From Schmidtea polychroa (Eukaryota): 64,000 nucleotides of DNA. The notes under the pieces were generated by a model. The model did not search any database and was not told where the DNA came from. It worked only from the letters and a program-made list of their open reading frames with translations. Below are positions 1 through 25,038 of this stretch, one piece after another; positions within the stretch are counted from its first letter, which is position 1; the number at the start of each line of letters is the position of its first letter. Made by a program: the position numbers and the translations under genes. The stretch covers positions 247,132,001 to 247,196,000 of the forward strand of contig CM097885.1 in the NCBI GenBank assembly GCA_044892525.1, given 5' to 3'.

Positions 1-4
1 GAAG

Positions 5-3000
5 TTGCCAAATGAAGAGAAACAAATAATAGAAGTTAATCCCGATTGCCAAGTTGACGAGTTAGTGCAAATCATAGATCAAGAGATCATCCAAAAAGCT
101 CGAGAAAATAGTGAGGATGGAATGATCGAAGATGTGATAATAATGTACAACCGGCACATGCTGGAAAGAGGAGACCGAACTGGAATTTACGAACTAGGAA
201 TCTGGGAAGATGGAGCCGTCATCAATATAATCGCGATGGATGAACCATCTGGTGGACACAAAAACGCCACGAAAACCGAGCAACAAGTTAAAAGATTCCA
301 ATGGGGAATGAGAGCAAAGATGGATCGAATAATAGATATTTATAACCATTGGCTAAAGGATGATAAACTAAAACTAGCAGCCTTCAATGACGAAGATTGC
401 AAACTGATACCATGGAAAAAAGTGTGGATCGAAAGTGAAGCTCGATGGGATTGGGAGCAGCAAAAGTTGGAACCAAATTGGATAGATAATATACCCGAAG
501 AGATCGCAGCAGTATGGGTAAGAGAGAAACCGATCGATACTTACCAGGATATATTACCACAAGAATTCCAAAATGAATTACCATCAGGAGAAGATGAGGA
601 GATACGAGAACCGGTAAGGTTAGCACCATTCACGTGGAAAATTGAGAATTGGATGGAAAAGATAAAATCAGCAAAGGAAGAGAAAATCACACGATTAGTA
701 AGTCCACCGTTCTACTCAGGATTAGGTGAGTACAAGATGAAATTGCGAATATACCCGAACGGAGACGGGATAGGTAAAGGAAATTATGTGTCGGCATTCT
801 TCGCCATCTGCAAAGGAAATTATGACGACAAGGTACCATGGCCGTTTAGCAGAAAAGTGACGATAGCAATCGAACCATTGAAAGATAGCCTTAACATGCA
901 TAAAGAAACATTGAAACCAGATCCAAGGAGCGCCTGCTATCAACGACCAACAACATCAGAAAATATCGCTTCTGGGACACCTAAATTAATACGTCTAAGT
1001 TACATTGAGAATGAGCAGTCAAAATTTGTGAAAAACAATGCTATCCAGATCAGAGTAGAAGTTGAAACAGAACAAGAAATGAACCAACGACTGAACATAC
1101 CAGAAAATCAACCGAGAATCTGTATGATGAGGAGAAGAGTGTCTGATTCAGGACATCTACCAATAGACGCCGACGCAGATGAGGAAGAAGCAGCAACATT
1201 GTTGGAAGCACAAAAATGTAAGGAGTTGATGGAGATATTACAAAACGGGGCGAAAAATCGTCGACGAGCGGTGGTAGAACTAGCAAAATGGATAGCCGAA
1301 TCATGCAAAAGGATTCAAAACCTACGAAAAATCGTTAAAGCGATTGAAGAATATCGACGGGTGTACGTATGGTACCCTGAACAATTTGGTGAAATTATCC
1401 GGAAATGGAAACAACAAGAGTGGGCCGAAAACTCACCTGAGAAATATCAATTAAAAATATTCATGCCAGATTTTGAACCAATGGAAAAGGAATTCTATAC
1501 GACAGCTAAAGTCAGAGAAGTTAAAAAGAGAATACCTTATGAACTCCCATTCCACTTACAACACGAGGGACGATCATTAGACGACGATATTGAGATTGGT
1601 GTGACACCACTCCAAGGAGAAATTGTGAACAGATTAACGGTGAGTAAAATTGCAGGTAGAGAGCTAAGGAGAAGAGAGATAAAGCAAAAATCATCCACCC
1701 AACAGCCAGGAAGTTTGGACACACCAGAAGTTCCAAATGCGGTTAGTGAAGTGACGATCGAAACAACGGGAGAAGACGAAATACTGGATGAATTACAAGA
1801 GATAGTAGAAGCCGGCGAGATTATGAGAGCATCGCAATCAGGAGATCTATTTATCGACGAAGGTGAACCGACAACTGATGATTTAGATGGATTTGTATGC
1901 GCGCAGAGACAACCAGTGGAAACGACGGAAGCCGAGACGGATTTAGATAACGTGGAAAGAAGTGCCAATAAAGATGTAACCACAACCGATGAATGGAGCA
2001 ACTGGAGAGTAGATCCAGGAGCGACCACGTCAAAAGATACTACTTACAATCCGCCAAAACGGAAAGAAACCGGAACAGCTATGGATCGACGAACAAGAGG
2101 AAGACCAAAAACAGATAAAGCAGAGATCGAACCAAAATCCAAAGTTCAGGCGCAAATGGAGCAGGTAAAAACTAAAATGGATAAACTAAGTGCATTAGTA
2201 AAACAAGTTAAAGTGAAGACAAGCGTCCGAGAACAAGGGACACGATGGATAAATGACCTATTAGCCAACATGTTAGCATTAGCAAATCCAGATGTGAAAA
2301 GAGTCATGAGGAAGGATAATATTCCGACCGAAGCCAAACAATTATGGGCAGTATTGAAACCGATAATAATGAAAATCATGGATAATAAAATTCGATTAAC
2401 GTTAAAAGATCCCGTGGAACTCAGATTAATTGTGGAACATCTATTAAGCAGATCAGAGGACCAAAATCGATTTTTAGTGGGATTAGCATATTTAGTATAT
2501 AACGTTATCGGTCAATATAAAAAACGAATGCCAAAATATAACGCAACGGGTTACGAATTCACAGTAACAGAAATAATTAAACGATCAATAGAACCATATA
2601 TACTTGAACAAGGGGGATGGAGAAGCTTCATCGAATCAACTGGGAAGAAAGATCAAACGGAAATGATGCAAGCAAAGTTACGCGATTTGCTAACTGAATT
2701 CGAAGGAACAATCAATATAAACGACCCAAGAGCAAGCCGAAAGGGAATGAATGCCATAATAACCACGATATTGATATGGATGATGTGTATCAAAGGAACG
2801 GAGTCATTTGCAGTATACGACTGCGACAACATAAAAATCCATGAGAAATATTCATTAAAGGATACGGAAGACTGTAAAGCGGCAAACCCAAGAAAATTAC
2901 AAACAGTCATGGCATCAGTCTCGTATAACGTATATCAAGAAGCAGATTTCATCAAAACCATGGTCCAAGAATGTACGGTAACCAGAAAGATATTCGCACA

Positions 3001-3220
3001 TCACTGCGGTTCATCCTCACACTCAACAATCATAGAACCAGGATTGGAATCGACAGTAATATTACTATCAAGAGAGGAATGCGAGGAAGGGTTCCGATCG
3101 GGGAGAATCCACTTAAGGCAAGGGATTGAAATTGCTGCAGAACCAGGAAAAATAAAAACGACTCGGCAGGCAGAATCACTAAAGGAGACGGAACATGTGA
3201 GACAGGAACGTACACCTTGA
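5..3220 (+). CDS. Polyprotein part 1 (5'-truncated by the window edge): MATH, ubiquitin-like and Bcl-2-like domains, hydrophobic anchor/signal, N-terminus of glycoprotein
   Basis: 1071-codon open frame already open at base 2 (the listed start is TTG, not ATG); domain motifs given in the sub-features below. Confidence 0.85.
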   Translation: MPNEEKQIIEVNPDCQVDELVQIIDQEIIQKARENSEDGMIEDVIIMYNRHMLERGDRTGIYELGIWEDGAVINIIAMDEPSGGHKNATKTEQQVKRFQWGMRAKMDRIIDIYNHWLKDDKLKLAAFNDEDCKLIPWKKVWIESEARWDWEQQKLEPNWIDNIPEEIAAVWVREKPIDTYQDILPQEFQNELPSGEDEEIREPVRLAPFTWKIENWMEKIKSAKEEKITRLVSPPFYSGLGEYKMKLRIYPNGDGIGKGNYVSAFFAICKGNYDDKVPWPFSRKVTIAIEPLKDSLNMHKETLKPDPRSACYQRPTTSENIASGTPKLIRLSYIENEQSKFVKNNAIQIRVEVETEQEMNQRLNIPENQPRICMMRRRVSDSGHLPIDADADEEEAATLLEAQKCKELMEILQNGAKNRRRAVVELAKWIAESCKRIQNLRKIVKAIEEYRRVYVWYPEQFGEIIRKWKQQEWAENSPEKYQLKIFMPDFEPMEKEFYTTAKVREVKKRIPYELPFHLQHEGRSLDDDIEIGVTPLQGEIVNRLTVSKIAGRELRRREIKQKSSTQQPGSLDTPEVPNAVSEVTIETTGEDEILDELQEIVEAGEIMRASQSGDLFIDEGEPTTDDLDGFVCAQRQPVETTEAETDLDNVERSANKDVTTTDEWSNWRVDPGATTSKDTTYNPPKRKETGTAMDRRTRGRPKTDKAEIEPKSKVQAQMEQVKTKMDKLSALVKQVKVKTSVREQGTRWINDLLANMLALANPDVKRVMRKDNIPTEAKQLWAVLKPIIMKIMDNKIRLTLKDPVELRLIVEHLLSRSEDQNRFLVGLAYLVYNVIGQYKKRMPKYNATGYEFTVTEIIKRSIEPYILEQGGWRSFIESTGKKDQTEMMQAKLRDLLTEFEGTININDPRASRKGMNAIITTILIWMMCIKGTESFAVYDCDNIKIHEKYSLKDTEDCKAANPRKLQTVMASVSYNVYQEADFIKTMVQECTVTRKIFAHHCGSSSHSTIIEPGLESTVILLSREECEEGFRSGRIHLRQGIEIAAEPGKIKTTRQAESLKETEHVRQERTP
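626..1065 (+). other. TRAF-type MATH domain within ORF1
   Basis: FTWKIENW...SPPFYS...YKMKLRIYPNGDG...NYVSAFFAICKGNYDDKVPWPFSRKVT matches the TRAF-C consensus (W.I, SP.FY, Y...LR.YPNG.G, G..D..L.WPF). Confidence 0.92.
1445..1641 (+). other. Ubiquitin-like (beta-grasp) domain candidate within ORF1
   Basis: YQLKIFMPDFEPMEKEFYTTAKVREVKKRI...FHLQHEGRSLDDDIEI...LQGEIVNRLTV aligns by eye to ubiquitin (QIFVK...TIENVKAKI...RLIFAGKQLEDGRTL...IQKESTLHLVL); no C-terminal GG. Confidence 0.5.
2240..2635 (+). other. Bcl-2-like domain within ORF1
   Basis: BH2-like YILEQGGWRSF (cf. WIQENGGWDTF) at ~2597-2629; degenerate BH1 EHLLSRSEDQNRFLVGLAY (cf. EELFRDGVNWGRIVAFF) at the expected spacing; hydrophobic segment about 40 aa later. 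Confidence 0.7.
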
Positions 3221-4640
3221 ACGGACAACTGGTTAGTGGAGTGGTCGTGATAGAAAGCTACGAAGCTAAATTAGAAAGGTATCAAGGTTATTTCGACCCT
3301 GACACGCAAGCAATGAAGAAATACCCAAGTTGTCTCGCATCAGATCGATCATGTTCAACCGGAATGTCAACTCTGGTATACCATGCGGATCAGAAGGTAT
3401 GTCGACTAATGTTGCTCAAAACAGCAATATTCGAAGAAATCCAAGGGAAAGTATACAGTGAACCAAAAGGAGAAGCAGAAAAACGAGCGATGGAAGAGTT
3501 GAGAGCAAGGAAAGGATTCAGAGAAGACGTAATAACATCGAAATTGGAATCGGAAGTAACACCCACAGCGATAATCTCCAAAGACGATGGAATAGGAATG
3601 AGGTTCATAAAGAACAAAATGGTGAGTAAATGCGATGAGATGGTGATCAGCACCAATTATAAAGGGATCTACTTGTCGCGGAGAACCCTAGCAAATGCAG
3701 TCGGAAGACTAAGCGAAAAGGATGTCAAACTATATTTATACGCTAATAATAAGATGGATTTCTTATATCACAGAGGATTAACATCCACGGAAAAAGTCTA
3801 CCATGATCTGTTAAGAAACGATTGCCTGCTCAACAAAGAAATACTGAGAACCAAATTAGCAATGGCGATTACAAATCCAGATAACGCAATTCCGTTACTA
3901 CCATTACAGGAAGGATATTTCGGACGAATCGTGGGCGAAGTGATGTACACCTACCAATGCAAAAAGATAATGGCAAGATTGCCAGAAAACCCTACAATAC
4001 CAAGAGATAAGTGTGCAAACGAACTCGAAATTATCCACGAAGGTAAACCCAGGTTTGTGCAAGCAGTCACTAGGGTAATGAACCCGGTAGGGTTTCAACC
4101 AAATCTGTTTAATTGTAGTAATGCATATGGACCAATGTATGAAAAAGAAGATGGACAATGGGTTCAATTCCCAAGTAAAACAATCGTAGTAACGCCCAAG
4201 AAATTTGGATTGACGGAACTAACAACAGAACTAGAGTTCAAGCCGATAGACGTATCCCAGAGTGGATTATATACACCAAAAGATCTCGAATCAGCAAGAG
4301 CCCACCTGTTATTCCCAGCGCAAAGACAAGCAATCTTATCAAATATAGTGACTATTTCTGGAGGAAATAATTATGGGGAGAGCCCAAATTACGAGCTATT
4401 ATTATCACCAAGTCACTATCAACAAGCAACAGCAAACATGATGAAGGCTATGTGGGGTCGATTTTTGGTATTTGGCCAAATGATGGCAGGAATACTCGGA
4501 ATTATTCTGATAATACAAATAGTCAGAGTAATACTAACCCAGATGCTAGCATGTTTTGACATCTATAAGCGCGAGAGAAAAGTAAATTGGAAACTTGCAA
4601 TTGGATTCTTACCGTTCTTAGCGAAAACAATGGTGTTGCA
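2747..4640 (+). other. Env-like fusion glycoprotein of the chuvirus/Jingchuvirales type (class III-like), split by the frameshift near 3150
   Basis: Signal peptide MNAIITTILIWMMCIKGTES then FAVYDC; AGRITKGDGTCETGTY; YTYQCKKI; MWGRFLVFGQMMAGILGIILIIQIV membrane region, all resembling chuvirus G and its retroelement-borne homologues. Confidence 0.75.
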
Positions 4641-7600
4641 TGGACACTCAAAGGATATTCATCGAATAAAAAGATTGTTGAAAATACTAACGCAAATGAA
4701 AGGGACAGACGAAGAAGTCGGACGTAAGTTCAAAGTGATAATGAGATTAGAAGCAGAAAGAACTCAAGAGAAAGCAAAAAGAACCGGGAAGTGGAAAAAG
4801 TGGATGAACCTCAGACGAGACGATGATAGTGACAACGACAATGATGATTTCGACGACGATGATAATAACCAAGGAGGAGCAATGTTGATAAATAAAAATA
4901 CAGCCACTTGGGAAAACGAAAAAATGAAACCATGGGGATCACCGTATTCACAGACCCCATATTTACAAGCACCAACTAATGGACCAATGCGACGACCAGG
5001 AACAATGAGAGAACGGATAAGAATGGGAACCGGGAGATTGCCCGTACCAAATATTTACCCAACGGCGTATGAACCAAATTGGGCAGCAATGGACCCAACA
5101 ATGATCAAGCCAATTAAAAATGTGGGGCAAGAGGTGGAAACACGAACGATTGCGGTATTGCAGACACCAGCCGGACCATCATTAACCATCACGGTCGAAG
5201 TAAACGGAATAGAAATGGATGCAATGATCGATACCGGAGCAAATATTTCGGCAATAAATATGAATATGCTACCAGGCAGACTATGGCCATGCATTGAAGA
5301 GACAACCATGGATGTAATAACATGCAGCAAACAATCCATAGCGGTGGTAGGAAGAGTATGGTCAACGATTGAATATAAAGGGGTTAAAGTTACAACGTAC
5401 CTCGCAGTCATTAGACAGCTAAGCGTATCATGTATAATTGGAACAGATGTAATGCCGGAATTATTGAAAGAAATTGTGATTGATTTGAGTTCCATGAAAT
5501 TAAAAGATAAAACTGGACAGATATGCACAATGAGAACAGAAGTGAGATGCTCCGAAAAAATGATAATACCAGCACGTACCCAGACAATATGTTATGTCAA
5601 GGTCGATAACGAAGTCAAAGGAGATATGATATTTGAACCAAGTCAAAAATTCGAGAAGAGAAGGGAGCTGCCATTGGCAAGAGAAATTGTCAGTATAAAT
5701 GAGGATAACGAGATACCCATCAATATCACCAATTTTGATGAGGAAGATAAAGTAATCTACGAAAACGAGAGACTTGGAAAACTCACACCAATGATGAACA
5801 TTGAGCTACCGGAGATAAAAAGCGAGGGAGCAGACGAAAAAGAATTATGGACCATCGATAGCGAACTCCTAAATAAAGACGAAAAGGAACAACTCAGACA
5901 ACTACTGATTGAGTTTAAAGATATTTTTGCGGCTTCAGATTTGGAATTGGGTACTAGCGATGTAACTCAACACATTATACCATTAACAGATGAGACACCC
6001 ATAACGTTAAGACCATATCGATTGGCTGAAGCACAAAAAACGGTAGCAGAGGAAGAAGTACAAAAGATGTTAGATGCTGGGGTAATAGAACCTAGTTGCT
6101 CACCATGGCAATTCCCAGTGGTAATGGTCAAAAAGAAAGATGGCACACAGAGATTTTGTATTGACTATCGGAGGTTGAACGCAGTAACAAAAAGAGATAC
6201 ATATCCACTGCCAGACATAAACGAAATGTTACAGATGTTGCATGGAGCAGCATACTTTACATCTTTAGATCTAAAGAGTGGATACTGGCAAATTAAAGTT
6301 AAAGAGGAAGATAGAGAAAAGACAGCCTTTACCATCGGAAAAGATTTATATCAGTTTAAAAAGATGCCATTCGGATTAACAAATGCACCTGCTTCGTTTC
6401 AAAGATGTATGAACTTTGTGACACACGGAATTAAACAATGTATGGTGTATATTGATGATCTGTTAATTTATTCAGGTACTTTCGAGCAACACTTAATCGA
6501 TATCAGAAACGTCTTCATAAGACTGAAACAATGGAAGCTGAAATTGAAACCGTCAAAATGCGATTGGGCAAAGGAGAGAGTCACGTTTTTAGGACATATT
6601 GTGTCGGCAAAAGGAAAGGAACCAGATCCGAGAAACGTTGAAAAGATAAAAAATTGCCCGATACCAAAGACTGTGACTCAGGTACAAGAATTTCTGGGAT
6701 TATGCGGATACTACCGCAAGTTCATCAAAAATTATGCAACTATAGCAAAACCAATTCAGGAACTAACGAAAAAAGACACCCCATTTTTGTGGGAAAGAGA
6801 ACAGCAAATAGCATTCGAATCGTTAAGAGATAAACTAATAGCCTCACCTATTCTAATACACCCAGATTTTAAAAAGCCTTTTCTACTAGCAACCGATGCC
6901 AGTGGATATGCATCAGGAGCTGTGCTAGGACAATGGGATGAGGAGAAACGAGAAAGAGTCATCGGATATTATAGCAAGACGTTCAAAAAGCACGAAAAGA
7001 ATTACTCGGTCACAGAAAGAGAAGCCTTAGCAATAATTCAGGCGATAAAACATTTCAAATATTTATTGTGGGGACACGAGATAATTATTACTACAGACCA
7101 TCAACCTCTAGTTTGGTTGGGCCAACACAAAGAAGCATCTAGCCGATTGATGAGATGGGCAATGCAGTTACAAGAATATTCCCCATACATCAAATTCAAG
7201 TCAGGAAAAGCAAACGCAAATGCAGACTGCATGTCGAGATTTGTATTTGAGGAACTCATGGATCATGACGTCAGACGAATATGCCTGATAATCGCGGAAG
7301 ATATCGATTTTACCAATCTAAAGAACGAACAAAAGGAAGACAATGAATTAAAACTAATAATTGAGTTCCTGGAAAAAAACGATATGAAAATATTCAACAA
7401 CGATGATCGACTAAAAGAACACATGGAGAAAAATCGTCACAGATATACGATCGAGAAAGGATGGCTATTGGTAATGGATGGCGACAAACGATTGATGTGT
7501 CTACCAGAAAGTAGACGGAAAGAAATTATGATTCAATACCACGATGGTAAATTGGGCGGACATATGTCAGCCAAGAAAACAGAAGCAAGGCTCAAACAGA

Positions 7601-10600
7601 AATATTACTGGCCAAATATGAGCGATGACGTGAAAGAATGGATAAAGAACTGCCTGATATGCGCAACCAGAAAAACAACGGGCAGTAAACTAAAGCCACC
7701 ATTGAAACCAATGCCGATACCGCCAGAACCAATGACAATGATTGCAATGGATGTAGTTGGACCACTACCAGAGACTAACAGTGGAAATGTGTATATATTG
7801 GTAATAACTGATTATCTGACCAAGTTCCCTGAAGCATTTGCGATGCCAGACCAGAAAGCACGAACAGTTGCAAGGATATTAGTGGAAGAGATCTGCTGCA
7901 GATATGGGACACCAAAACAAATCTTAACTGATCAAGGAACTAATTTCATGAGCGAGATAATAAATGAAGTGACAAATTATTTTAGAATTGCCAAATTGAG
8001 AACCTCACCATACCACCCGCAAACGAATGGTCAGACAGAAAGATTTAACGGCATACTAATAGACATGATGTCCAATTACGTGAGTAAACATCAAAAGGAC
8101 TGGGATGAATATATTAAGTTGTGTCTAATGGCTTATCGAATGTCAATACACTCAGCAACGAAAATGAGTCCGTTTAAACTCATGTATGGAAGGGAATGCA
8201 ACATGCCGATGGATCTCGAATACCAACCGCCAATCTCACAATATATGGAGATAGATGATTATGTGACAAAGTTCAAGGAGAGAATGCAAGAAATATGGAA
8301 AACCGCAGGGATGAACATCCGATTCAACCAAGAGAGTTATAAGGAATTGCATGATAAAAAGAAGAACGTACAAAACCATCAATTTAAAATCGGAGATTGG
8401 GTTATTATAGAAACACCCGAATTAATCCCAGGAACAGCAAAGAAATTACAACGTAATGGCAGAGGGCCATATGAAGTCATCTATGTAAACGAGAACAACG
8501 CTAGAGTGAAGTTGGTTAACAATCCACTAATTAGACCCATTTATGTGAATACATGTCGATGCAAAGCAGTAGCGAAAACTGCCACTAAAGACCCAGAAAC
8601 AAGAAGGATAATCACGAGATCACAAACAAATGCCACAACGGAACCAGAAGTAAGCGGTAGATTAACTAGATCACAGACAAGACGAATATTCATGTTGAGA
8701 GGAGAAACAAGCAGCAGCGCCCATAAAGGAACTGAAGCAGAAAGCGAAGCTGACGCAATGGCAAGGAGCCAAGCAACATGGAATATGACAGTAAAAATAG
8801 CACGAGAAATTGTACCAGAATGGGCCGATATAACCAATAAATACCAAGTATTGGGCAAACTAATGTTAGTAGCAGAAAGATATGCGAAAGGACGAAGATA
8901 TGCCGAAGGATTACAAATACCGACTCAAATATATGAACTAATCCGGAGATTACCAATCATGTTCCTAACAAGTGATTTGAGTAATAACTGGCCAATCCAT
9001 CATGCAGTGAAAGCAGGACAAGAAAAACGAGCTTTAGAGATTATACGAATAATGGAAAACTGCAAACAATCAACAAACGTCAAAAACAGTAAAGGAAAAA
9101 CTCCACTGATGAAAGCCATAGCAATAGGCGCGTCAAGAGATGTACTCAGAGAATTATTAAGAACGGGATCCACGCTGAAAGAAAAAGACAACAAACAACG
9201 AACCGTATTACGTTATGCCGTCAGGTCAAAAAGACCTAGTATAGTGAACTTTATCACAGGAAATGCAACAACCGAAGAAGCCGAGGTGTTGGGACAGAGC
9301 ATTGAACCAATTCTGGAAGCCATCAGAGGAAACTTAGACAGAACCGCAGCAATATTAATCAAATGGAAACAAAACGAATTAAGAGCGGAAGTAATTGATA
9401 TAAATCAATTCCAAAACAACGAAAATATCGTACTAAGAAGCGCCATATACTCAAGACCACCAATGCCAAAAACCATTAAAGCAATATTACAGAGAAATAG
9501 AACAGAATTGACAGGTAATTGGTGGAAATGCACAAAAACACATGCGATGAAAAAGCAACTAGAAATACTAGTGTGGGAATGGCACCGGAAACAACGGAAA
9601 TATCAAGGAACCAAAGAAGAACGAGAAAGTATCCACAACGACAAAAAAGAGATAATTAAAAAATACGAGGAGATGATCAAAGCAGCAAATGTCGAGGACG
9701 ACATTTTCAGGAAAACCCCGGGTGAGAGGAATGACGACGACGACGACGACGAAAGGATGGGGGATAACGATAACAACCCAGAGGAAAACGACAGAGAACA
9801 GAATCCGGAAGGCGGAGAAACAACGAGTGATGATGAGGAATTGGAAGAAGACGAAGAAGACCAATGTCGAGGTGAAGATCAAGGATTCGACAAAACGGAG
9901 AACAAAAAACGAAAGTCCCCACTACATAGCATAGTGTGTCGAAATCAAATCCAGCCAATCCTACTACAAAGAATATTTATAATATTAACATCCATCTGTT
10001 TAACAGAAACAAAAAATATAAGAATCGTAAGAGAAGCTTCCCAAGAAGGTGAAGCATTTATGATAAAAGTCAGTGATTACGACGGAAATGCCGTCGGAAT
10101 ATGTGTGCAATTAATGGAAGGAACAGGAGTAAGTTGTGATTTCAGATCGATAACAAAAGGAAAGATTTTTAGCAGCCAAAAAAGAGATCCCAGGCTATGT
10201 GGAGATTATGACATCTGTAGAGACATATCAACAGAGGAAATGGAGCTAGAAAGAGCCAACGAAACCGGAGTACATTTTCAACTCAACATTTTGGAAGAAG
10301 GTATCGAAATAGAAGATAAAGGGAGTCGATCAATTACACATGTATGCATCAGAGAAGACAGAGACATATGCATAATAACTGATATGACACAAGACCACAA
10401 ATTCTTCTGGGGAGAGGTCAAACCAAATACCCCTACTGTGGTATGCGCAGGAACACAAGGGATAGTAGTATGTAAAGGAACAAGAACTGCACCAAGAAAA
10501 GACAAGCCAAAGAGTATGGCAATGAAACAAGATCCATTAAGGGGGATAGCAACCAAGAAGCCAAACAAATCAGTTAGTACAAAAACAACAACAGAGCAAA

Positions 10601-11448
10601 ATCAAACCGAATTAATAACAACAACAACATGGATTAACGAAGTAATTAAAGACGAAAGACGGGAAGTGCAGATAACTATTAACCTCAACAAGAAAGGTGA
10701 AGAGGTAATTACAGTCAAAAACCAGGAAGGAGAACCAATCATAAGGATATGTGTAATGGATAAGACGGGAATAATCGACTGTACAACAACACCGATAGAC
10801 AAAGGTACAGACGTTAAAATGGAGACAGGGAAACGGAAAGAACGATACCAAGTATGTATCCTTAAGAAAGGAAGAGGAACCAGCGTATGTCAACCAATAA
10901 CTCGACAAAAACCCCAATTAATAAACATACCATGGATACCCCGAGATCAAGAAGGGGGAGAGAAACGGGAAAATCACAGTCACCTAACAGAAAAAGAGAA
11001 GGAACGATTACATCAAGCATTCAAGAAAATCAAAGCACCAGAAACAAATACCACAGGTAGTACAATATTAACGACAGAAAAAACAAATAATGGAACAACG
11101 ATCATCACAAAGATGATATGGATAACTAGCGCGATAGTAAGCACGATAATAGCGTTAGCAATGATTCAGTGGATAAGAACCACCAAAAGATGTAAACAAA
11201 AACCGAGAAACCAAAGAAAATGGCCCAAAGTGGAAAAATTTGAATACGGTATTCCAACAGAGAATCTGAATCTAGAAGAATACGAGGTGGTAGAGGATCC
11301 CGGATCCAGCGGATTGTGGATGTCGGAACTACCAAGAATACCCACACCGAACGAATGGACACACGAAGTCGATATATACCGAATAACGGACGAAAGATAT
11401 GGGGGAATGCGCACGCTGCATTCCGGCCCCATGGCGACACTGGTATAA
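3217..11448 (+). CDS. pol: Polyprotein part 2: glycoprotein remainder, Pol (PR-RT-RH-IN), ankyrin repeats, C-terminal membrane protein
   Basis: 2743-codon uninterrupted frame, open from 3130; listed start is TTG, so it is probably the continuation of ORF1. Confidence 0.95.
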   Translation: MNGQLVSGVVVIESYEAKLERYQGYFDPDTQAMKKYPSCLASDRSCSTGMSTLVYHADQKVCRLMLLKTAIFEEIQGKVYSEPKGEAEKRAMEELRARKGFREDVITSKLESEVTPTAIISKDDGIGMRFIKNKMVSKCDEMVISTNYKGIYLSRRTLANAVGRLSEKDVKLYLYANNKMDFLYHRGLTSTEKVYHDLLRNDCLLNKEILRTKLAMAITNPDNAIPLLPLQEGYFGRIVGEVMYTYQCKKIMARLPENPTIPRDKCANELEIIHEGKPRFVQAVTRVMNPVGFQPNLFNCSNAYGPMYEKEDGQWVQFPSKTIVVTPKKFGLTELTTELEFKPIDVSQSGLYTPKDLESARAHLLFPAQRQAILSNIVTISGGNNYGESPNYELLLSPSHYQQATANMMKAMWGRFLVFGQMMAGILGIILIIQIVRVILTQMLACFDIYKRERKVNWKLAIGFLPFLAKTMVLHGHSKDIHRIKRLLKILTQMKGTDEEVGRKFKVIMRLEAERTQEKAKRTGKWKKWMNLRRDDDSDNDNDDFDDDDNNQGGAMLINKNTATWENEKMKPWGSPYSQTPYLQAPTNGPMRRPGTMRERIRMGTGRLPVPNIYPTAYEPNWAAMDPTMIKPIKNVGQEVETRTIAVLQTPAGPSLTITVEVNGIEMDAMIDTGANISAINMNMLPGRLWPCIEETTMDVITCSKQSIAVVGRVWSTIEYKGVKVTTYLAVIRQLSVSCIIGTDVMPELLKEIVIDLSSMKLKDKTGQICTMRTEVRCSEKMIIPARTQTICYVKVDNEVKGDMIFEPSQKFEKRRELPLAREIVSINEDNEIPINITNFDEEDKVIYENERLGKLTPMMNIELPEIKSEGADEKELWTIDSELLNKDEKEQLRQLLIEFKDIFAASDLELGTSDVTQHIIPLTDETPITLRPYRLAEAQKTVAEEEVQKMLDAGVIEPSCSPWQFPVVMVKKKDGTQRFCIDYRRLNAVTKRDTYPLPDINEMLQMLHGAAYFTSLDLKSGYWQIKVKEEDREKTAFTIGKDLYQFKKMPFGLTNAPASFQRCMNFVTHGIKQCMVYIDDLLIYSGTFEQHLIDIRNVFIRLKQWKLKLKPSKCDWAKERVTFLGHIVSAKGKEPDPRNVEKIKNCPIPKTVTQVQEFLGLCGYYRKFIKNYATIAKPIQELTKKDTPFLWEREQQIAFESLRDKLIASPILIHPDFKKPFLLATDASGYASGAVLGQWDEEKRERVIGYYSKTFKKHEKNYSVTEREALAIIQAIKHFKYLLWGHEIIITTDHQPLVWLGQHKEASSRLMRWAMQLQEYSPYIKFKSGKANANADCMSRFVFEELMDHDVRRICLIIAEDIDFTNLKNEQKEDNELKLIIEFLEKNDMKIFNNDDRLKEHMEKNRHRYTIEKGWLLVMDGDKRLMCLPESRRKEIMIQYHDGKLGGHMSAKKTEARLKQKYYWPNMSDDVKEWIKNCLICATRKTTGSKLKPPLKPMPIPPEPMTMIAMDVVGPLPETNSGNVYILVITDYLTKFPEAFAMPDQKARTVARILVEEICCRYGTPKQILTDQGTNFMSEIINEVTNYFRIAKLRTSPYHPQTNGQTERFNGILIDMMSNYVSKHQKDWDEYIKLCLMAYRMSIHSATKMSPFKLMYGRECNMPMDLEYQPPISQYMEIDDYVTKFKERMQEIWKTAGMNIRFNQESYKELHDKKKNVQNHQFKIGDWVIIETPELIPGTAKKLQRNGRGPYEVIYVNENNARVKLVNNPLIRPIYVNTCRCKAVAKTATKDPETRRIITRSQTNATTEPEVSGRLTRSQTRRIFMLRGETSSSAHKGTEAESEADAMARSQATWNMTVKIAREIVPEWADITNKYQVLGKLMLVAERYAKGRRYAEGLQIPTQIYELIRRLPIMFLTSDLSNNWPIHHAVKAGQEKRALEIIRIMENCKQSTNVKNSKGKTPLMKAIAIGASRDVLRELLRTGSTLKEKDNKQRTVLRYAVRSKRPSIVNFITGNATTEEAEVLGQSIEPILEAIRGNLDRTAAILIKWKQNELRAEVIDINQFQNNENIVLRSAIYSRPPMPKTIKAILQRNRTELTGNWWKCTKTHAMKKQLEILVWEWHRKQRKYQGTKEERESIHNDKKEIIKKYEEMIKAANVEDDIFRKTPGERNDDDDDDERMGDNDNNPEENDREQNPEGGETTSDDEELEEDEEDQCRGEDQGFDKTENKKRKSPLHSIVCRNQIQPILLQRIFIILTSICLTETKNIRIVREASQEGEAFMIKVSDYDGNAVGICVQLMEGTGVSCDFRSITKGKIFSSQKRDPRLCGDYDICRDISTEEMELERANETGVHFQLNILEEGIEIEDKGSRSITHVCIREDRDICIITDMTQDHKFFWGEVKPNTPTVVCAGTQGIVVCKGTRTAPRKDKPKSMAMKQDPLRGIATKKPNKSVSTKTTTEQNQTELITTTTWINEVIKDERREVQITINLNKKGEEVITVKNQEGEPIIRICVMDKTGIIDCTTTPIDKGTDVKMETGKRKERYQVCILKKGRGTSVCQPITRQKPQLINIPWIPRDQEGGEKRENHSHLTEKEKERLHQAFKKIKAPETNTTGSTILTTEKTNNGTTIITKMIWITSAIVSTIIALAMIQWIRTTKRCKQKPRNQRKWPKVEKFEYGIPTENLNLEEYEVVEDPGSSGLWMSELPRIPTPNEWTHEVDIYRITDERYGGMRTLHSGPMATLV
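5180..5460 (+). other. Retropepsin aspartic protease
   Basis: AMIDTGANISAI (DTG at 5230) and downstream CIIGTDV (IIG.D motif). Confidence 0.93.
6000..6700 (+). other. Reverse transcriptase (Gypsy type)
   Basis: RFCIDYRRLN, YPLP, LDLKSGYWQI, MPFGLTNAPASFQR, YIDD at 6448-6459, FLGHIVS. Confidence 0.97.
6880..7250 (+). other. RNase H (Ty3-type)
   Basis: LATDASG..GAVLGQ, NYSVTEREALAI, TDHQPL, RLMRWAMQLQEY, KSGKANANADCMSR. Confidence 0.96.
7480..8500 (+). other. Integrase with HHCC zinc finger, DDE core and GPY/F module
   Basis: YHD...GHMS...CLIC; AMDVVGPLP; TDQGTNF; YHPQTNGQTERFN; RGPYEV at 8461-8478. Confidence 0.96.
8990..9490 (+). other. Ankyrin repeats (3 clear, up to 5) fused downstream of integrase
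   Basis: WPIHHAVKAGQ; KNSKGKTPLMKAIAIG..DVLRELLRTG; KDNKQRTVLRYAVRS match the G.TPLH.A...G consensus. Confidence 0.85.
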
Positions 11449-12052: not shown

Positions 12053-12141
12053 GAGAAAAAGGAGTGAAATGTAAATAATCCTGTAAATAAATAGAGTTAT
12101 AATCAAGTAGAAATCCCAAGATTAAAAATCATCATTGTAGA

Positions 12142-13706: not shown

Positions 13707-14885
13707 ATGATTAATCAAGAGAGACCGAATATCCGAAAGAAAACGATCACAATGAGAGAGGAAGAGGACAATATGTCACCTAGAGAAAGAGTGAAGGATG
13801 CGGAAGTCAGCAAAACAAAACCAAGTAGTTACGCATATTATCGGAGAATGGGAAACGATTATAATTGGGTACACGAAAATTTGAAACTGGGAAATAATGA
13901 ACAATTCAGATGTGAGAACCAGAGATATCTGTCATTTGAACATCAGACCATTTTTACCAAGGAACAAAGCCGAGCGCTAGCACGCGACGGATTTTTCTTC
14001 TCTGGAAAACCAGAGATACCCGATCAAGTAACATGTCGTTTCTGTAAAGGGAAATTAGCAGAATGGAAAAAAGGAGAACACCCAAAGGAGGAACATCGTA
14101 GACGATTCCCAACTTGTCTATTCGTACTGGGATTTGATGTACACAACAAACCGGAAATCAAATACGAAGCCTTGGAGAAATTGAAAACTGAAGACGAAAA
14201 AGGAGGGAAAATGAGCATCGCGATAACCAGAATCGTTGATGAGTATGTTCCAACTTGTGAAGGGGAATTCCTCACGCAAATAGCAGATAATAGAATGAAA
14301 ACGTTCGGAGATGATACGAGAGGACCTGAATTAGCAATAAGAGGGTTCTACCTAACAGAAAATCAAATACTAAAGTGTGAAAGATGCGAAAGCCAACAGA
14401 GATTACCGGAAGAAGGCATACCAGAAATTAGACATCAAGCATGGTGCCTATATCACAACGAACAAGAAACCGAATATCCGGAAGTACTAGTAACAGAGGA
14501 AGAGGTTGACGAAGTGGTAGACAAACCCAACATGTGCAGAGCGTTGAAAGCAGCCGGAATAGGCACGACAAGGGCAAAGAACATGATTAGAGAGAAACTA
14601 CAGAAAAATGTACATATACCAACAACAACGTACGATATGATCAGAGCGATAACCCAGTATAGAGAAAAACCTGAAACAAAAATAAAAGAAGAATCAATGG
14701 TCAAAACAGCTATCTTACGAGATATCAAATGTACTATGTGTTGGGAGAGGAGTGTAGAAGTTATTCATATGCCATGCGGACATTTGATCGCATGTGCCAC
14801 ATGTAGTAGAAAAGTAAAGGAATGTCCGATGTGCAGACAGAGGATTGCGCAGCGAATCAAAGGATTCCGCTACGCCGATCAATAA
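13707..14885 (+). CDS. iap: Inhibitor of apoptosis (IAP): BIR, degenerate BIR, C-terminal RING
   Basis: BIR1 R..SF...LARDGFFF...VTCRFC-x16-H-x6-C; BIR2 RMKTF...LAIRGFY...CERC...H...C; RING CTMC...PCGHLIACATC...CPMCR. Confidence 0.94.
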   Translation: MINQERPNIRKKTITMREEEDNMSPRERVKDAEVSKTKPSSYAYYRRMGNDYNWVHENLKLGNNEQFRCENQRYLSFEHQTIFTKEQSRALARDGFFFSGKPEIPDQVTCRFCKGKLAEWKKGEHPKEEHRRRFPTCLFVLGFDVHNKPEIKYEALEKLKTEDEKGGKMSIAITRIVDEYVPTCEGEFLTQIADNRMKTFGDDTRGPELAIRGFYLTENQILKCERCESQQRLPEEGIPEIRHQAWCLYHNEQETEYPEVLVTEEEVDEVVDKPNMCRALKAAGIGTTRAKNMIREKLQKNVHIPTTTYDMIRAITQYREKPETKIKEESMVKTAILRDIKCTMCWERSVEVIHMPCGHLIACATCSRKVKECPMCRQRIAQRIKGFRYADQ

Positions 14886-18606: not shown

Positions 18607-20959
18607 TGTGACATCACGACAGTATAAACATTTCATGACATTATAAAACATTATCAAACAATCATGATTTCAAAGACTGAGACTGATTGTGACTAATAAC
18701 ATTGATTCTTGAGCATGATAATTTTATTTTTGTGTGGACCGACCTCGGTCGTTCTTTTTCTTCATCTTTCAACCCATCCGTAGAATGTAGTATAATAGTA
18801 GCCTTTTTATGTATGTGGGTATTGAGGTCACGACCCTGTAGCTCGTGGACCCAATTTGCATGTAGGCACTTGTAATATAGTGCAAGTATTCTGAAAATAA
18901 TTTTCTTCATCTTGTGATTTAAATTGCGGGTCGCAATTTTATGGGCCCCCGAGTGTTTTATGTTGGGCTAGAACTGATTTCTAGACCCAAAATACTAATT
19001 GTGACTGAAACGCGTAAGTACACAGCAAGTAAAAAAGCACCAAGTATAGTTAAATATTAAAACCTACACCAAATAAACAATATTAACTAAAGGAGAAAGC
19101 AACAAAAACATAAACAAAGAAATTAAACAAAATTATACAAAAGCAAGAAGTGATGCAAAAATCTAACTCAAAAATAACCAAATAAACACAGGGTTACAAA
19201 AAACAGACTCGAATAACTTAAAAGACGATAAAAACAGTAAAACATTCCAGAAAAACCCAGAACATTCTATAAAAATGGCGATGACCATCACAAAAGTTAT
19301 CTAGAACAACAAAAGTTAAGGAAAATAAATAAATTAGTATTAAAAATAATAAATCTTTAAAAGAAATTCACAAAACATCAGTTAAAATAAAAATTAAATT
19401 AAAAATAAAATAGAATGTTCTGGAACCGTTCCAAATCCATCATGGACGGCAAATTAACGAAAAATAATTAAAAAATAAAAATATAAAAATAAAAACAAAA
19501 ATTATGGCACAAAAATTGTCATTAAAAATAGCAAAATCGCTAAATAGAAAATTCTGGAATAAAAAGAATTCGAGTTTGTTTTAATGCATCAATACATACA
19601 CGTGTACTAAATAGGTATATATACTGACACGTTTCAGTCACAATCAATCACTTTTATGCCAAATTTTTGTGACGAAATTTCCAAAATCGATAGTAAGCAT
19701 TGATCTTTATTTGTATATTAATTGTTTAATTATATAGATGGTATTTTAAATTTATTTTTTGCTTAAAATTTTTTGCGATGTATGAGTGATCAACGGCGTA
19801 CTGGTATTCCTGCGTCGTTGTTCAGTCCTGCATCCAATTTATTAAAATCGCTATTAACAGGACATGCAGACACGCATTATCATTATTATAGTGATATTTA
19901 TTATATGATTTCTTTTTGTTCGGGTCAGCCGGAGGTCGAACTACTTCATGGTCCTGCCATGGAGTTAGGTCGAGGAAACCCTCCGCCTGACTCTTCGTAT
20001 TTATTTAAGGTCAGCCGTAAATGGTTGACTTAGCACACAACACTAAGGTTTGTGGACGTGGTCACAGTGAGGCCATGAAAGCAATATTCTTCCCGACTCA
20101 TTGCGTAATATACAATTAAACTCAACACTTAAAATCCTGAACAATAACTCTACACTAAGGTTCTAATTTGAGTAGAGCTCGTACCTAAAATTACACAATT
20201 CTACACTCACATTAATGTAGCTAGTTGATTCATAATGGTAATTTCAATTATACTTAGACATATGCCGAACTAGATTTTGTAGTAAGGATCTTTGATAAAG
20301 TAATAGAAAAAAGAGAGATATTCGGCATACGTACAGGTATAACTTGATCTAGATATGTTGATTCCGAGTAAAGATAGACATTTTAAATCTAGCTCCCACT
20401 TTAAAATGTTTGTAAATGTGTAGGCTCTTAGTTGCAATATTCTTGTTGTTAACTATAAAACTATAAGTTATAAATAATTACGATAGCTAGGTACAAACCA
20501 CGTCGATCCTGAAAATGTAAATTGTTAATGGAGAAAGTCTGATCAGAGATAGTAGTAAACAATTTTCGTATAAAAATCAACTTAGGATTGGTTACAGATA
20601 GGCGATAGACGCGCTAGAACCCTGAAGTTTAATCCACAAATAGGACCAGGAAATCTGTAAGTACTGCGGAAAACAATGTTGATCATAGAAGGAAGTTGTA
20701 AGAAGTATATTCCGTCGACTAAAAATTTCAAATTATAAAGTATGAAAATACGAATTACAAAAGTATAAATTTTAGATTATAAACTTATAAATTATAAGTT
20801 AAGCAATTATAACTTATAAAAAATGAATGTATAAATTTCAAAATATGAAATTAATTATAAATTACAAGATTGTAAATCCCTAAATGGAAAAATTTTAAAT
20901 TATAAATCGAAAATTATCAAAGTATAAATTATAAAACATGAATTTATAATTCTAAAACA

Positions 20960-21320
20960 TGGATTATAAAATTATAGTTATCATAATCCTGATCATTTCC
21001 CTTGTTATTACTATTAGCAGTATCAACATTATCATTACTATTAGTATTATTATTCTTATTATTATTATATTATTATTATCATTATTATGAATATCATAAT
21101 TAGCATTATTATTATTATCATCATTATCAGTACCATTATAAAAATTTATTATTATTCTTGTTATTACTATTATTAGTATTCTTATTATTACCATTATTAA
21201 AATTTATTATTATTCTTATTATTATTACTATCATTGCTATTATTAATATTATTATTATCATTATTATTACTATTATTAGTATCGTTATTTCATTGTTATT
21301 ATTATTGGTATTATTACAGT
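20960..21320. repeat. Degenerate (ATT/ATC/ACT)n trinucleotide microsatellite
   Basis: About 360 nt of attatt/atcatt/actatt units. Confidence 0.9.
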
Positions 21321-21831
21321 TAACTACAAAAAATCGATATCCCAATCCGATATCGATCACCTGGAAATTTAGAAATTAGCAAATTAAATAAATTACTTGT
21401 ATGCAGAGCAAACCACTCATAACGAGCACAACCGAAGGAAAGGTAAGCAGACGAAGAGCTTAGTTCGTTGCTAGTACCTGTCGCCCCAGCGTGCCCGAAT
21501 TTAGTGGCCTAAGAATGACGATCAAAAAGGAAAAAATTCACATTTTATTAATATGTAAATTAAAATTTATAAATAGTAATTAAAATTACTACTCAGTGGT
21601 AAACAAAATTTTGAATGGAAATGATTAATTTAAACAAACGAATTTTGACGAAAATTTTTTTTGTGTGTTTGTTTTGATAAAGTAGGAAATCTTATTCCAC
21701 TGCTCCTAAACTTATAGATGGTAGTCTTAAAATAAAATATTTTTTTTTAAAGGGAAAAAGGGTCAACAAAATCTTGTGGTTGACGTCGTATCTCAATCAG
21801 TATAGAGGGGCTTGATTATTATTTTGTAGAA

Positions 21832-22197
21832 ATGTCCTACTCTGACAGCGATAGCCACGAAGAAGCCGACCGACAGATGCTTACCAGACTCCGTACACGG
21901 TACATATGGCACCGTATCCATGATTGGAATCGGGGTTTGGACCTCGACAACTTTGGCCCAGTAATCAGGAGTGGGCCGGAGCCGGACGCTCCGGCGTGGG
22001 TAAAAACAGAGCCCACAAACGATTTTTTGCAAGAGGCCCGCGACCGAGCGGCCATCGAGGTAGAAGCAGCTCAGATGCGACTCAAGAAGATCGAGCTACA
22101 AATCCAAGCAGAAAAAGAGGGAAAAACCGTGGAGGACCTAGAAGAGGCCGAGGCAACCCCGCGGAAGAGGGGAAGGCCTCGCAAGCGACTGAACTGA
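21832..22197 (+). CDS. 121-aa protein with C-terminal AT-hook
   Basis: GC-richer island; PRKRGRPRKR; TTTTGTAG acceptor 2 nt before ATG. Confidence 0.6.
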   Translation: MSYSDSDSHEEADRQMLTRLRTRYIWHRIHDWNRGLDLDNFGPVIRSGPEPDAPAWVKTEPTNDFLQEARDRAAIEVEAAQMRLKKIELQIQAEKEGKTVEDLEEAEATPRKRGRPRKRLN

Positions 22198-22408
22198 CTC
22201 ATCGTCAAAAATTTTGTTTTTTGCAAATTAACATTCAGTTGCGATTTTATTAAACTTTGATTTTAGTGATAATTATTTCAGTCCTTTTAATAAATCATCT
22301 TGTGTATTGCGTGCTTAACATCCGAAACTATGTTTATTTATAATATTGATTTTATTTTATAATTGAATGAATAGTATGCTGCAAGAATATAATCGTTGAA
22401 TTTATCTA

Positions 22409-22879
22409 GTGTTCAGACTATTGGAAAATCTGCGAAGAGATAGGGCAGAAGCTCAAAAACAGTCCGAGGAGCTCCGCATACGAGTAGACAAGCTCAAGGG
22501 ACGGTGCCGGGAACTAGAAAGCACCTGGTTTAGTCCCGAGGATATGAAAAAGAAGGTGGCGCAGGTCCTTCAACTGCAGACTCAAGCCGCGCAGGATCAG
22601 ATGGAGATCCGGGCACTGAAGCTCCAGCTCCGCGCGCTAGAAACCGAGCGAAATGAACAAGTAGTTCACGGAGCCGCCATAAGCCAAATCCGGCCGTTGA
22701 CCGTGGAACTAGCAGCAATATACCCCCCGGCCGCGAAAGAGAAACCCAAAAGAAAGCGGTTAGGCCGAAATATTCGGGAAAAATTGAAGAAAGCTAGACT
22801 GGCCGAATACGAGCGACAAGCAAATTTGTCACTAGCAGCTGCGACGAAATTGGCCAGTCCTACCAATAAGCCTGTTTGA
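22409..22879 (+). CDS. Coiled-coil protein with basic NLS-like C-terminus (5' end probably supplied by splicing)
   Basis: 156-codon frame without ATG at its start; TTTATCTAG acceptor at 22401-22409; KPKRKRLGRNIREKLKK. Confidence 0.55.
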   Translation: MFRLLENLRRDRAEAQKQSEELRIRVDKLKGRCRELESTWFSPEDMKKKVAQVLQLQTQAAQDQMEIRALKLQLRALETERNEQVVHGAAISQIRPLTVELAAIYPPAAKEKPKRKRLGRNIREKLKKARLAEYERQANLSLAAATKLASPTNKPV

Positions 22880-25038
22880 ACTTATATTCGGTTTTAGGTG
22901 TTTTGTAGTATTTTTATGTATTGTGGTAGTCTTCAAATAATATGTTCCTTGTTAAAATACTGCACGTTTTGTAGTGATAAAATAATGACTAGTACAGTTT
23001 ATGATTGCCTGGGAAATGAGAGTTTGTGCATAAGGTTGGGAAAACAATTTTGATAAAGGGACCTGAGAAATCGGACACACACCTTCTATCGGTAGTCCGT
23101 GAACCCACGGAGTACTCGACAACTATAGTGCTTTGATGCGCTCACTTTTTGCGAGTACTCAACCCTTGGTACAGTACCAACGTTGATCACTCAACGGGTA
23201 CCAAGCGGAAAAACAATGTTGTATTTTGGGTTACGCTGGTAACAGCACTCAATCATTCAACCACCAGTAACCCACCAATAGAAAATAAAAATTCAAAACA
23301 AAATTCAAGCACTTTATTTGAAATCATAATTTCCACTAAAAATTAATATTTTATGCAGTAACACAAAATGTCAAATACAAGAAAATTTATAAAAAATATA
23401 TATTTCAAAGCATAAATTTCAAGATTCGATAATCAAAACCATATCCGAATTGTTTCAAAGTGTTGACACATAAATCCAACAATTAATGGATATTGAAAAT
23501 CCACCATTGAATTTGAAAACAATTAAATTAGAAAAATAACTACTCAGCAATTATAATGGCATTTTAAAAACAGTAATTAATTATAAATCTAAATATAAAA
23601 AATTAAGAAACTTTCGAGTTTTTTCTGTACACTGGGATTCAGTAATACATTTAAATGCATATACTTAATTAAATATTTTATAGTTTTTTAATAGTTTCAT
23701 TATCGTTAAATTTTCTCTTTTTGTTTTGATTATCAATAATATAACTATTTGAATAATTATTTACATCACTATTGGAATAAACACTTGTAATCCTATAAGG
23801 TTGATTGACTTTGATCTTTTCAATAGGATTTACTCGATAATGATTAATGCTAGTCCTGAACAATAGGCCGTATTAAATAAACATTAAAAAAATAGATAAA
23901 AGCGAATAGCAATACGGGACCGTGAATTGATAAGATGGTTAATAGTTTTTCTTATTACAAGATTATTCCTATATTAAATCGACAAAATTAATAATTATAT
24001 CGACAATATTACTATTTATATCGACAATATTAATTATTATGGACAATATTAATTATTATCAATAATATAAATAGTTATTAGTAATGACAAAATTATTTAT
24101 TAAAAAGTTTGAAGACTGAATCAGTAAATATATCAAAATATATCGATATATTTACTGATTCGTAGTCTTTAAGCTTTTTACAATGGAAATACAATGGGAA
24201 AGAAATCAGTGGTGAAATTTGAAAAAAAGTTCTTATAATACAAAATTATTTATTTAATCTTTCTCTCTAAATCGTAGCGATATCCCGGAAGCAATTGCTC
24301 CAGTTATCATACGTATGCTCTTATTTTAGTTAATGAAAAATCCGAATCAAAAGAATTTAATAAAACAAATCAGCTATAAAAGATGTCATATAAATTCCTG
24401 ATATCTAACATATAGTGAAGCTTAATTTGCATCAACATTCGTCTATTACTGGTCTGCAAATCATCGAACATTCCAATGACATATAACAGTGCAGCTCTTT
24501 GATGAGCTGTGTGGCTCCCAATATCAGAGCAGTAGCTAGGGATGGCAAATGGGGCGACCGCCCCGGGCGCCGAGTCGAAGGGCACCAAAACTGTGAAATG
24601 ATCATTTAAATTTTTTTTGCTTTTCTTTCTTTTTTTCATATTAAATTTTTATATTCTGCTTTCGATGTTTACTGTTTTCAAAAGTTAAACTAAAACAAAA
24701 CTGTTTTGCTAGTCTATCTAAAGGTTTTTGCAAACAGGTGACTAAATCCGAAAGTGGCTGATCATGAAAACAGTCATGAGCATAAAAAACGCTATTTAGC
24801 CTGGAAAGATCTTGAAAATCGTTTGAAAGAATGAAGGACAATTAATGATAATGGTTATAGATATCGATATGCCCGATACAGTAGTCTATATATAAAAACG
24901 AGAAATCGGAGAATAGCCTATTCAATATTGAGAAAAGAATCAGAATTATTTTTTCATAGTAATGGAAATTTTGTAAAACATGGCGACTCATTTCTTGTAA
25001 ACTCGGCCACCCGCTGATATATTATAACGAAAACCAAC

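Follow-up and report, generated by a model that had tools for sequence, protein, structure and literature searches.

A 64,000-nucleotide stretch of Schmidtea polychroa DNA (contig CM097885.1; referred to here as the window) overlaps a Burro-type giant LTR retroelement whose Gag-Env-Pol polyprotein contains a diverged Bcl-2-fold domain. We propose, with moderate confidence, that the predicted internal signal peptide of Env itself tethers the Gag-MATH-Bcl-2 precursor to the endoplasmic reticulum (ER) only until proteolysis.

The 3' part of the element occupies the first 23.3 kb of the window, an A-rich coding stretch; Gag, with its zinc knuckles, is encoded upstream of the window (Table 1). Equivalent LTR ends lie 30.0 kb apart and the LTR spans at least 3.26 kb, which puts the length of the element at 33 kb or more, beyond the 30 kb that Burro-type elements exceed; the near-identity of the LTRs indicates a young insertion. 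The window copy carries a short frameshifting deletion near nt 3160, inside the glycoprotein gene, and the alignment shows a gap at this deletion for 18 of the 19 other fetched copies. By hand count, about 60 of the 150 sister copies that were scored, out of 784 candidates, have a single 4,791-codon open frame, with no in-frame stop from Gag to Pol in intact copies, and all 150 are 98 to 100% identical over the Bcl-2/signal region, which contains no stops. The layout, a single Gag-MATH-BCL2-Env-PR-RT-RH-IN-ankyrin polyprotein plus a BIR accessory gene, is that of Burro, and the element is assigned to the Burro type by layout and length. The "ORF1" of an initial annotation of this DNA does exist as frame 2..3220, but it is the middle part of a longer frame, in which Gag lies farther upstream.

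Table 1. Features of the retroelement in the window (nucleotide positions count from the first base of the window; aa numbers refer to frame 2..3220)
Feature	Position	Strand	Basis and remarks
MATH/TRAF-C domain	629..1063	+	Pfam MATH_2, E 1e-29, aa 210-354; same polyprotein, upstream of the Bcl-2-like domain
Bcl-2-fold domain, helices 1-8	2225..2650	+	aa 742-883; profile and model
BH1-equivalent DQNR, aa 820-823	2459..2470	+	Aligned to NWGR jointly with host Bcl-2 genes; Arg kept, Trp and Gly lost
BH2 GGW, aa 871-873	2612..2620	+	Sequence; GW invariant in 16/16 rows
Linker: predicted low-confidence helix, then basic n-region RASRK	2651..2746	+	Model pLDDT under 50-57
Predicted internal signal peptide of the glycoprotein, core about aa 918-930	2747..2806	+	Pfam PF24664, hydropathy, register; predicted cut after nt 2806
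Monjiviricetes/chuvirus-type (gB-like) fusion glycoprotein	2807..4536	+	Pfam PF24664, E 1e-16 and 6e-46 on two frames
C-terminal membrane helix of the glycoprotein	4480-4536	+	Hydropathy
Protease, reverse transcriptase, RNase H, integrase	5188..8019	+	Pfam; in frame downstream of the glycoprotein
Ankyrin repeats in polyprotein	8995..9258	+	Pfam Ank_2, E 3e-8
Accessory TRAF-like gene (zinc fingers and MATH), downstream of polyprotein	12103-13566		Pfam
Accessory BIR and RING (IAP-like) gene	13707..14885	+	Pfam BIR, E 9e-16; RING, E 3e-12
3' part of 3' LTR	20024..23284	+	99.9% identity over 3,261 bases with a stretch upstream of the window

Other parts of the element and its relatives show further features. 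A RING ORF lies upstream of Gag (L021:3975-4457), and relatives P0005, P0008, P0010, and P0012 encode two or more tandem aspartyl-protease domains after the glycoprotein. At the end of the polyprotein, after the integrase and ankyrin repeats, a hydrophobic segment (9949-10005) and a later membrane helix (11113-11169) suggest a second internal signal followed by a putative second surface protein, with no Bcl-2 domain preceding it.

The initial annotation had called the domain Bcl-2-like, and both profile and structure searches agree. A profile built from element sequences only matches Bcl-xL (E = 2e-7, positions 62 to 144), and all 60 among the matches listed are Bcl-xL or Bcl-2. With a profile that omits both the window family and its nearest sister, the window domain scores 35.6 bits, compared with a maximum of 6.2 in 200 shuffles. 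A genome search with the Pfam Bcl-2 model identified a second element family, with matches near or over the cut-off (a sister-family score of 31.9 versus 31.4 bits), directly before the same glycoprotein; this second family aligns with the window domain (E = 2e-7). The arrangement of Bcl-2 before the glycoprotein is common to seven families in the genome, and seven more relatives came from the protein library. Taken alone, the window domain has no Pfam Bcl-2 match and reaches Bcl-xL by phmmer only at E = 0.47, a profile built from host Bcl-2 only is weak on the window frame (6.5 bits versus a shuffle maximum of 4.6), and protein searches with alignment A2 returned only three proteins, all already found.

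We modeled the domain from 16 element sequences with no cellular Bcl-2 in the alignment, and the resulting model has moderate confidence (mean pLDDT 58, pTM 0.48). The Bcl-2 fold packs about eight helices around a central hydrophobic helix 5. In a VIA-align search, ranks 1 to 28 are all Bcl-2-fold structures, the best with Z = 11.2 (140 residues aligned, rmsd 3.3, model residues 6 to 147), a value in the range (Z < 13) that, by the warning of the tool, can reflect a common helical arrangement; the first unrelated row has Z = 7.2 with 76 residues aligned. The best 40 Foldseek rows contain Bcl-2-family chains only, with top E values of 0.013 to 0.055 and none under 0.001. A single-sequence fold prediction (pLDDT 43.6) was uninformative and was discarded. 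Despite the Z scores below 13, we accept the Bcl-2 fold because the match covers the full domain, a single family occupies the top ranks, and an independent sequence profile agrees. Together, the profile searches and the model indicate that the domain is a real, diverged Bcl-2 fold. It also appears to be maintained: dN/dS is 0.04 to 0.27 in five sister-family pairs and 0.45 in a distant pair that includes the window family. These estimates, rough because dS is near saturation in several pairs, show that the domain is under purifying selection in the sister families.

The hydrophobic segment after the domain is, by its predicted features, a signal peptide in build and weaker than a usual membrane helix. 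M916 (nt 2747) lies 42 residues past GGW, GTES ends at nt 2806, and FAVYDC starts at nt 2807. A 20-residue hydrophobic segment about 40 residues after GGW had been annotated here; the position is right, but the length is not, as the 20 residues from M916 to S935 include an apolar core of only about 13 and an uncharged run of 16. The best 11-residue Kyte-Doolittle mean is 2.35, and the best 19-residue mean only 1.35. The basic n-region gives a net charge of +3 before the core and a polar c-region follows it, with Thr at -3 and Ser at -1; a basic n-region, a core of 7 to 15 residues, and such residues at -3 and -1 are the build of a signal peptide. A tail anchor, by comparison, is a protein's own C-terminal helix of about 17 to 22 residues that inserts posttranslationally, whereas this segment is internal and its core is shorter. 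The low-confidence helix in the linker bears a faint likeness to a BH3 helix; it lacks the Gly-Asp pair, and we rejected the likeness as probably due to chance.

The cleavage site proposed at 2806/2807 is supported by both the -3/-1 rule and conservation. With a cut three residues before YDC, positions -3 and -1 both hold small residues in 24 of the 28 relatives compared; none of 11 other registers achieves this in more than 7 of 28. This test disallowed Ile and Leu at -3 and thereby disfavors an alternative cut directly before YDC, which has a small -1 residue in 25/28 relatives but Val in the window. Of 44 library proteins, 21 entered the register test and the tree described below; the 23 excluded were fragments starting at or after the signal, proteins with no YDC match, and P0038 and P0041, in which YDC is present with no hydrophobic segment before it.

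Does this segment belong to the Bcl-2 domain or to the glycoprotein? Position 1 of the Pfam glycoprotein model (PF24664) is M916. The segment occurs in the same register in nine in-frame relatives without Bcl-2, each with at least 144 in-frame residues upstream, and also at the N terminus of five stand-alone glycoproteins. The nine were chosen as lacking GGW, and none matches the Bcl-2 profile (best, -0.3 bits or no score); two of them (P0010 and P0025) carry a Gag zinc knuckle in frame upstream. Nor is the segment more hydrophobic where Bcl-2 is present: the mean best 19-mer hydropathy, calculated by hand, is 1.75 in 14 rows with Bcl-2 and 1.88 in the nine rows without. Across the 14 Bcl-2-bearing relatives, the linker between BH2 and the segment varies from 26 to 58 residues, and it is under the weakest constraint, relative to Bcl-2 and G, in all three estimable pairs of one clade. 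Judged from these alignments, the segment belongs to the glycoprotein and is not the tail of Bcl-2. The initial title, in which a Bcl-2 tail anchor doubles as the glycoprotein signal, is therefore not supported by the Bcl-2-free relatives and the stand-alone glycoproteins or by the hydropathy and linker comparisons, and it overstates the case: an envelope signal may serve as an anchor, rather than a tail anchor having become a signal.

Because no Met is present between BH2 and the core in 4 of the 14 Bcl-2-bearing lineages, the signal must work internally in these four. Seven of the 14, including the window, do have a Met 22 to 28 residues before YDC, and stand-alone glycoproteins start at 21 to 32, as would be expected if the glycoprotein were mostly made alone from M916, by a spliced or shorter RNA or a leaky start, with Bcl-2 coupled to it only in a minority full-length product. 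We regard this as very improbable given the four lineages that lack such a Met, the uninterrupted frame between Gag and Pol in intact copies, and the lack of a pyrimidine-rich acceptor within 200 bases before M916 (best, 7 of 14). Among the matches listed from contigs of four runs of uncertain kind, none has a joint or a loose end at M916. An internal signal would, by its topology, leave the Bcl-2 part facing the cytosol and, initially at least, tethered; that portion of the earlier reading is retained. Its further claim of a 1:1 output of Bcl-2 and Env follows from the single frame, but it is not special to this pair, since it holds for Gag, MATH, and Pol alike.

To place the domain and the signal in the history of the element, we built a tree from the first 330 residues of the glycoprotein (25 rows; four rows with a short glycoprotein were excluded). 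One starred clade (97/94) unites all 11 Bcl-2-bearing rows with five rows that lack the domain, among them the sister of the window family; outside this clade, four rows have the signal and no Bcl-2. In a tree of the domain, the element sequences lie on one side of a branch that separates them from seven host-type Bcl-2 sequences (SH-aLRT 88, not starred). These patterns fit a single gain of Bcl-2 followed by several losses, with neither tree proving one origin. Relatives without Bcl-2 carry this same signal, as do the outer rows of the tree, so it likely predates and outlasts the domain. A host Bcl-2 was thus likely captured once, without its own tail, immediately upstream of a preexisting signal and was lost again in some lineages. 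In 14/14 Bcl-2-bearing lineages, the domain is directly before the signal and never elsewhere, a fixed position that is expected either from selection for anchoring or from one inherited insertion.

In the mechanism that we favor, the ribosome would make Gag-MATH-Bcl-2 in the cytosol, and the signal segment would then insert N-in/C-out, sending the glycoprotein into the ER lumen. Signal peptidase would cut after GTES and free the glycoprotein, whose C-terminal membrane helix would return Pol to the cytosol. The precursor would keep a stub of the signal as a short anchor, as does hepatitis C virus (HCV) core, until the stub is removed by the element protease acting in the loose linker or by signal-peptide peptidase. 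Release of the Bcl-2 part is an assumption of this scheme, as no protease site was identified in the linker; in its favor are the brevity of the core and a linker that varies in length and is weakly constrained, whereas the fixed position speaks for retention.

N-in/C-out is also the orientation of a tail anchor, and the stub might instead be kept as a permanent, functional one, with Bcl-2 fixed at this site for its ER anchor and retaining Bax/Bak-like proteins of the host at the ER, the site of particle budding. The invariable placement of the domain directly before the signal and the purifying selection on it would agree with such a role, as would the observation that nearly all antiapoptotic viral Bcl-2 proteins are membrane anchored (PMC5691641). 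We nevertheless consider permanent anchoring unlikely. The segment has a core of only about 13 residues and a low 19-mer mean, and the presence of Bcl-2 brings no gain in its hydrophobicity; the linker is of variable length, and a single inherited insertion also explains the fixed position. An ER signal would, moreover, not deliver the domain to mitochondria, described as the main destination of viral Bcl-2 anchors (PMC5691641), and the NWGR Trp and Gly are absent from all 13 element domains. The corresponding evolutionary scenario, in which a Bcl-2 captured once without its tail was kept where the envelope signal supplies a new ER tail anchor, and the mature stub-anchored protein guards the ER membranes of particle budding in at least 14 lineages, is to our mind just as doubtful.

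The alteration of BH1 noted at the outset is confirmed by a joint alignment: the window carries DQNR in place of the NWGR of canonical prosurvival proteins, which bind BH3 helices and block Bax/Bak, and across element domains Trp and Gly are each retained in 0/13 and Arg or Lys in 11/13. Helix 2 of the element domains has no BH3 Gly-Asp. Host-type planarian Bcl-2 sequences also deviate at BH1, with Gly in only two of seven. The groove of the domain most likely no longer follows the NWGR rule, as these alignments suggest. DQNR is also found in a distant relative, P0013, and the two are not grouped on either tree. A local cluster of seven near-identical host-type Bcl-2 genes in this genome (L022-L028, G000:C4 89.9-90.8 Mb) has NWGR intact.

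Both BH3 binding and a poxvirus-like scaffold role are possible for such a domain. As a scaffold resembling A52, B14, and K7, it would block TRAF/NF-kB-type signaling without binding BH3 and its anchoring would be irrelevant, a reading that can coexist with the precursor topology proposed above. The complete loss of NWGR and of the helix 2 Gly-Asp is consistent with a scaffold, and the element also encodes MATH, TRAF, and ankyrin modules; in addition, mouse Boo, with SWSQ at this site, binds no proapoptotic protein (PMC5691656), and B14, A52, and K7 have the same fold without BH3 binding (PMC5691641). However, most element domains retain the BH1 Arg or Lys, the partner of the BH3 Asp, the best structural matches are BH3-binding proteins and not the A52 group, F1L binds Bak without obvious BH motifs (PMC2836074), and host-type planarian Bcl-2 sequences deviate as well. 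We therefore rate the scaffold reading as a credible minority view. Whichever way it acts, the most likely job of the domain is to damp cell-death or stress signaling in the particle-making cell, alongside the IAP, TRAF/MATH, and ankyrin cargo of the element.

Elsewhere in the genome, multicopy compact Bcl-2 genes (L045:3778-4233 on the minus strand, L046, and L037-L041) adjoin a TBP-like ORF; an A32/AAA-like ATPase is also near the Bcl-2 gene at L046, and the L045 protein ends in a hydrophobic tail of its own. From this gene content, these copies are possibly the cargo of a second, DNA-type mobile element.

The Bcl-2 domain and its place in the element are already known. A BCL2-like motif in Burro elements was noted by Grohme et al. 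2018, as cited in Arkhipova and Yushenova 2019 (PMC6431247), where Env is placed in frame between BCL2 and the protease. Our finding is thus mostly a rediscovery, to which we add a structural case for the fold, evidence that the domain is under purifying selection, the family-wide loss of NWGR, and a likely history of gain and then loss in which the signal predates Bcl-2. We found no paper on a Bcl-2/envelope anchor, a weak blank since the same searching missed even PMC6431247. Burro1 is transcribed in planarians (PMC8532177), and its IAP cargo is reported, second-hand (PMC13465017), to protect planarian stem cells from caspase-mediated death; the Bcl-2 domain would be a second putative death regulator in the same element. 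Were the stub a lasting anchor, it would illustrate how a soluble domain, once captured into a polyprotein, can become a membrane protein at no extra cost, and the product would be a chimeric, anchored death regulator assembled from a host gene and the signal of an RNA virus glycoprotein.

The arrangement at this junction has counterparts in RNA viruses. In flaviviruses, the capsid anchor is an envelope signal that likewise anchors an upstream cytosolic protein. At the HCV core-E1 junction, too, the envelope protein has an internal signal peptide that, once cut by signal peptidase, keeps the cytosolic protein before it anchored in the ER (PMC5402940). In HCV, as described there, that protein is the capsid and is later freed by signal-peptide peptidase, whereas in the element a Bcl-2 fold lies between Gag and the signal. 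The closest known relatives are Burro and GYPSM1 (Jurka 2007, cited in PMC6431247), which likewise exceed 30 kb and encode one polyprotein of about 4,800 aa with the same domain order and a BIR gene; the Burro report gives 4,873 aa (PMC6431247), compared with 4,791 codons from stop to stop here, and the accessible part of this description is silent on any signal peptide or anchor where BCL2 meets Env. The GAG-ENV-POL errantiviruses of the HSV/gB type from Platyhelminthes, Nematoda, and Bryozoa (Chary and Hayashi 2026, PMC13524379), among which Schmidtea elements are included, also have Env between gag and pol and, according to the accessible portion of that study, a gB/chuvirus-type ectodomain with a membrane helix on one side and a signal peptide or membrane segment on the other; unlike for the element described here, the string "Bcl" is absent from the main text and from seven supplementary files. 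The eight-helix fold is likewise carried on virus-like entities by the viral Bcl-2 proteins ASFV A179L, BHRF1, KsBcl-2, and N1L, at 10 to 16% identity. Bcl-2 family proteins typically have a C-terminal anchor (PMC6540150), and large DNA viruses encode theirs as separate genes, whose products mostly bring a mitochondrial anchor of their own (PMC5691641); the Bcl-2 of this element, in contrast, is a polyprotein domain with no tail of its own and with NWGR replaced.
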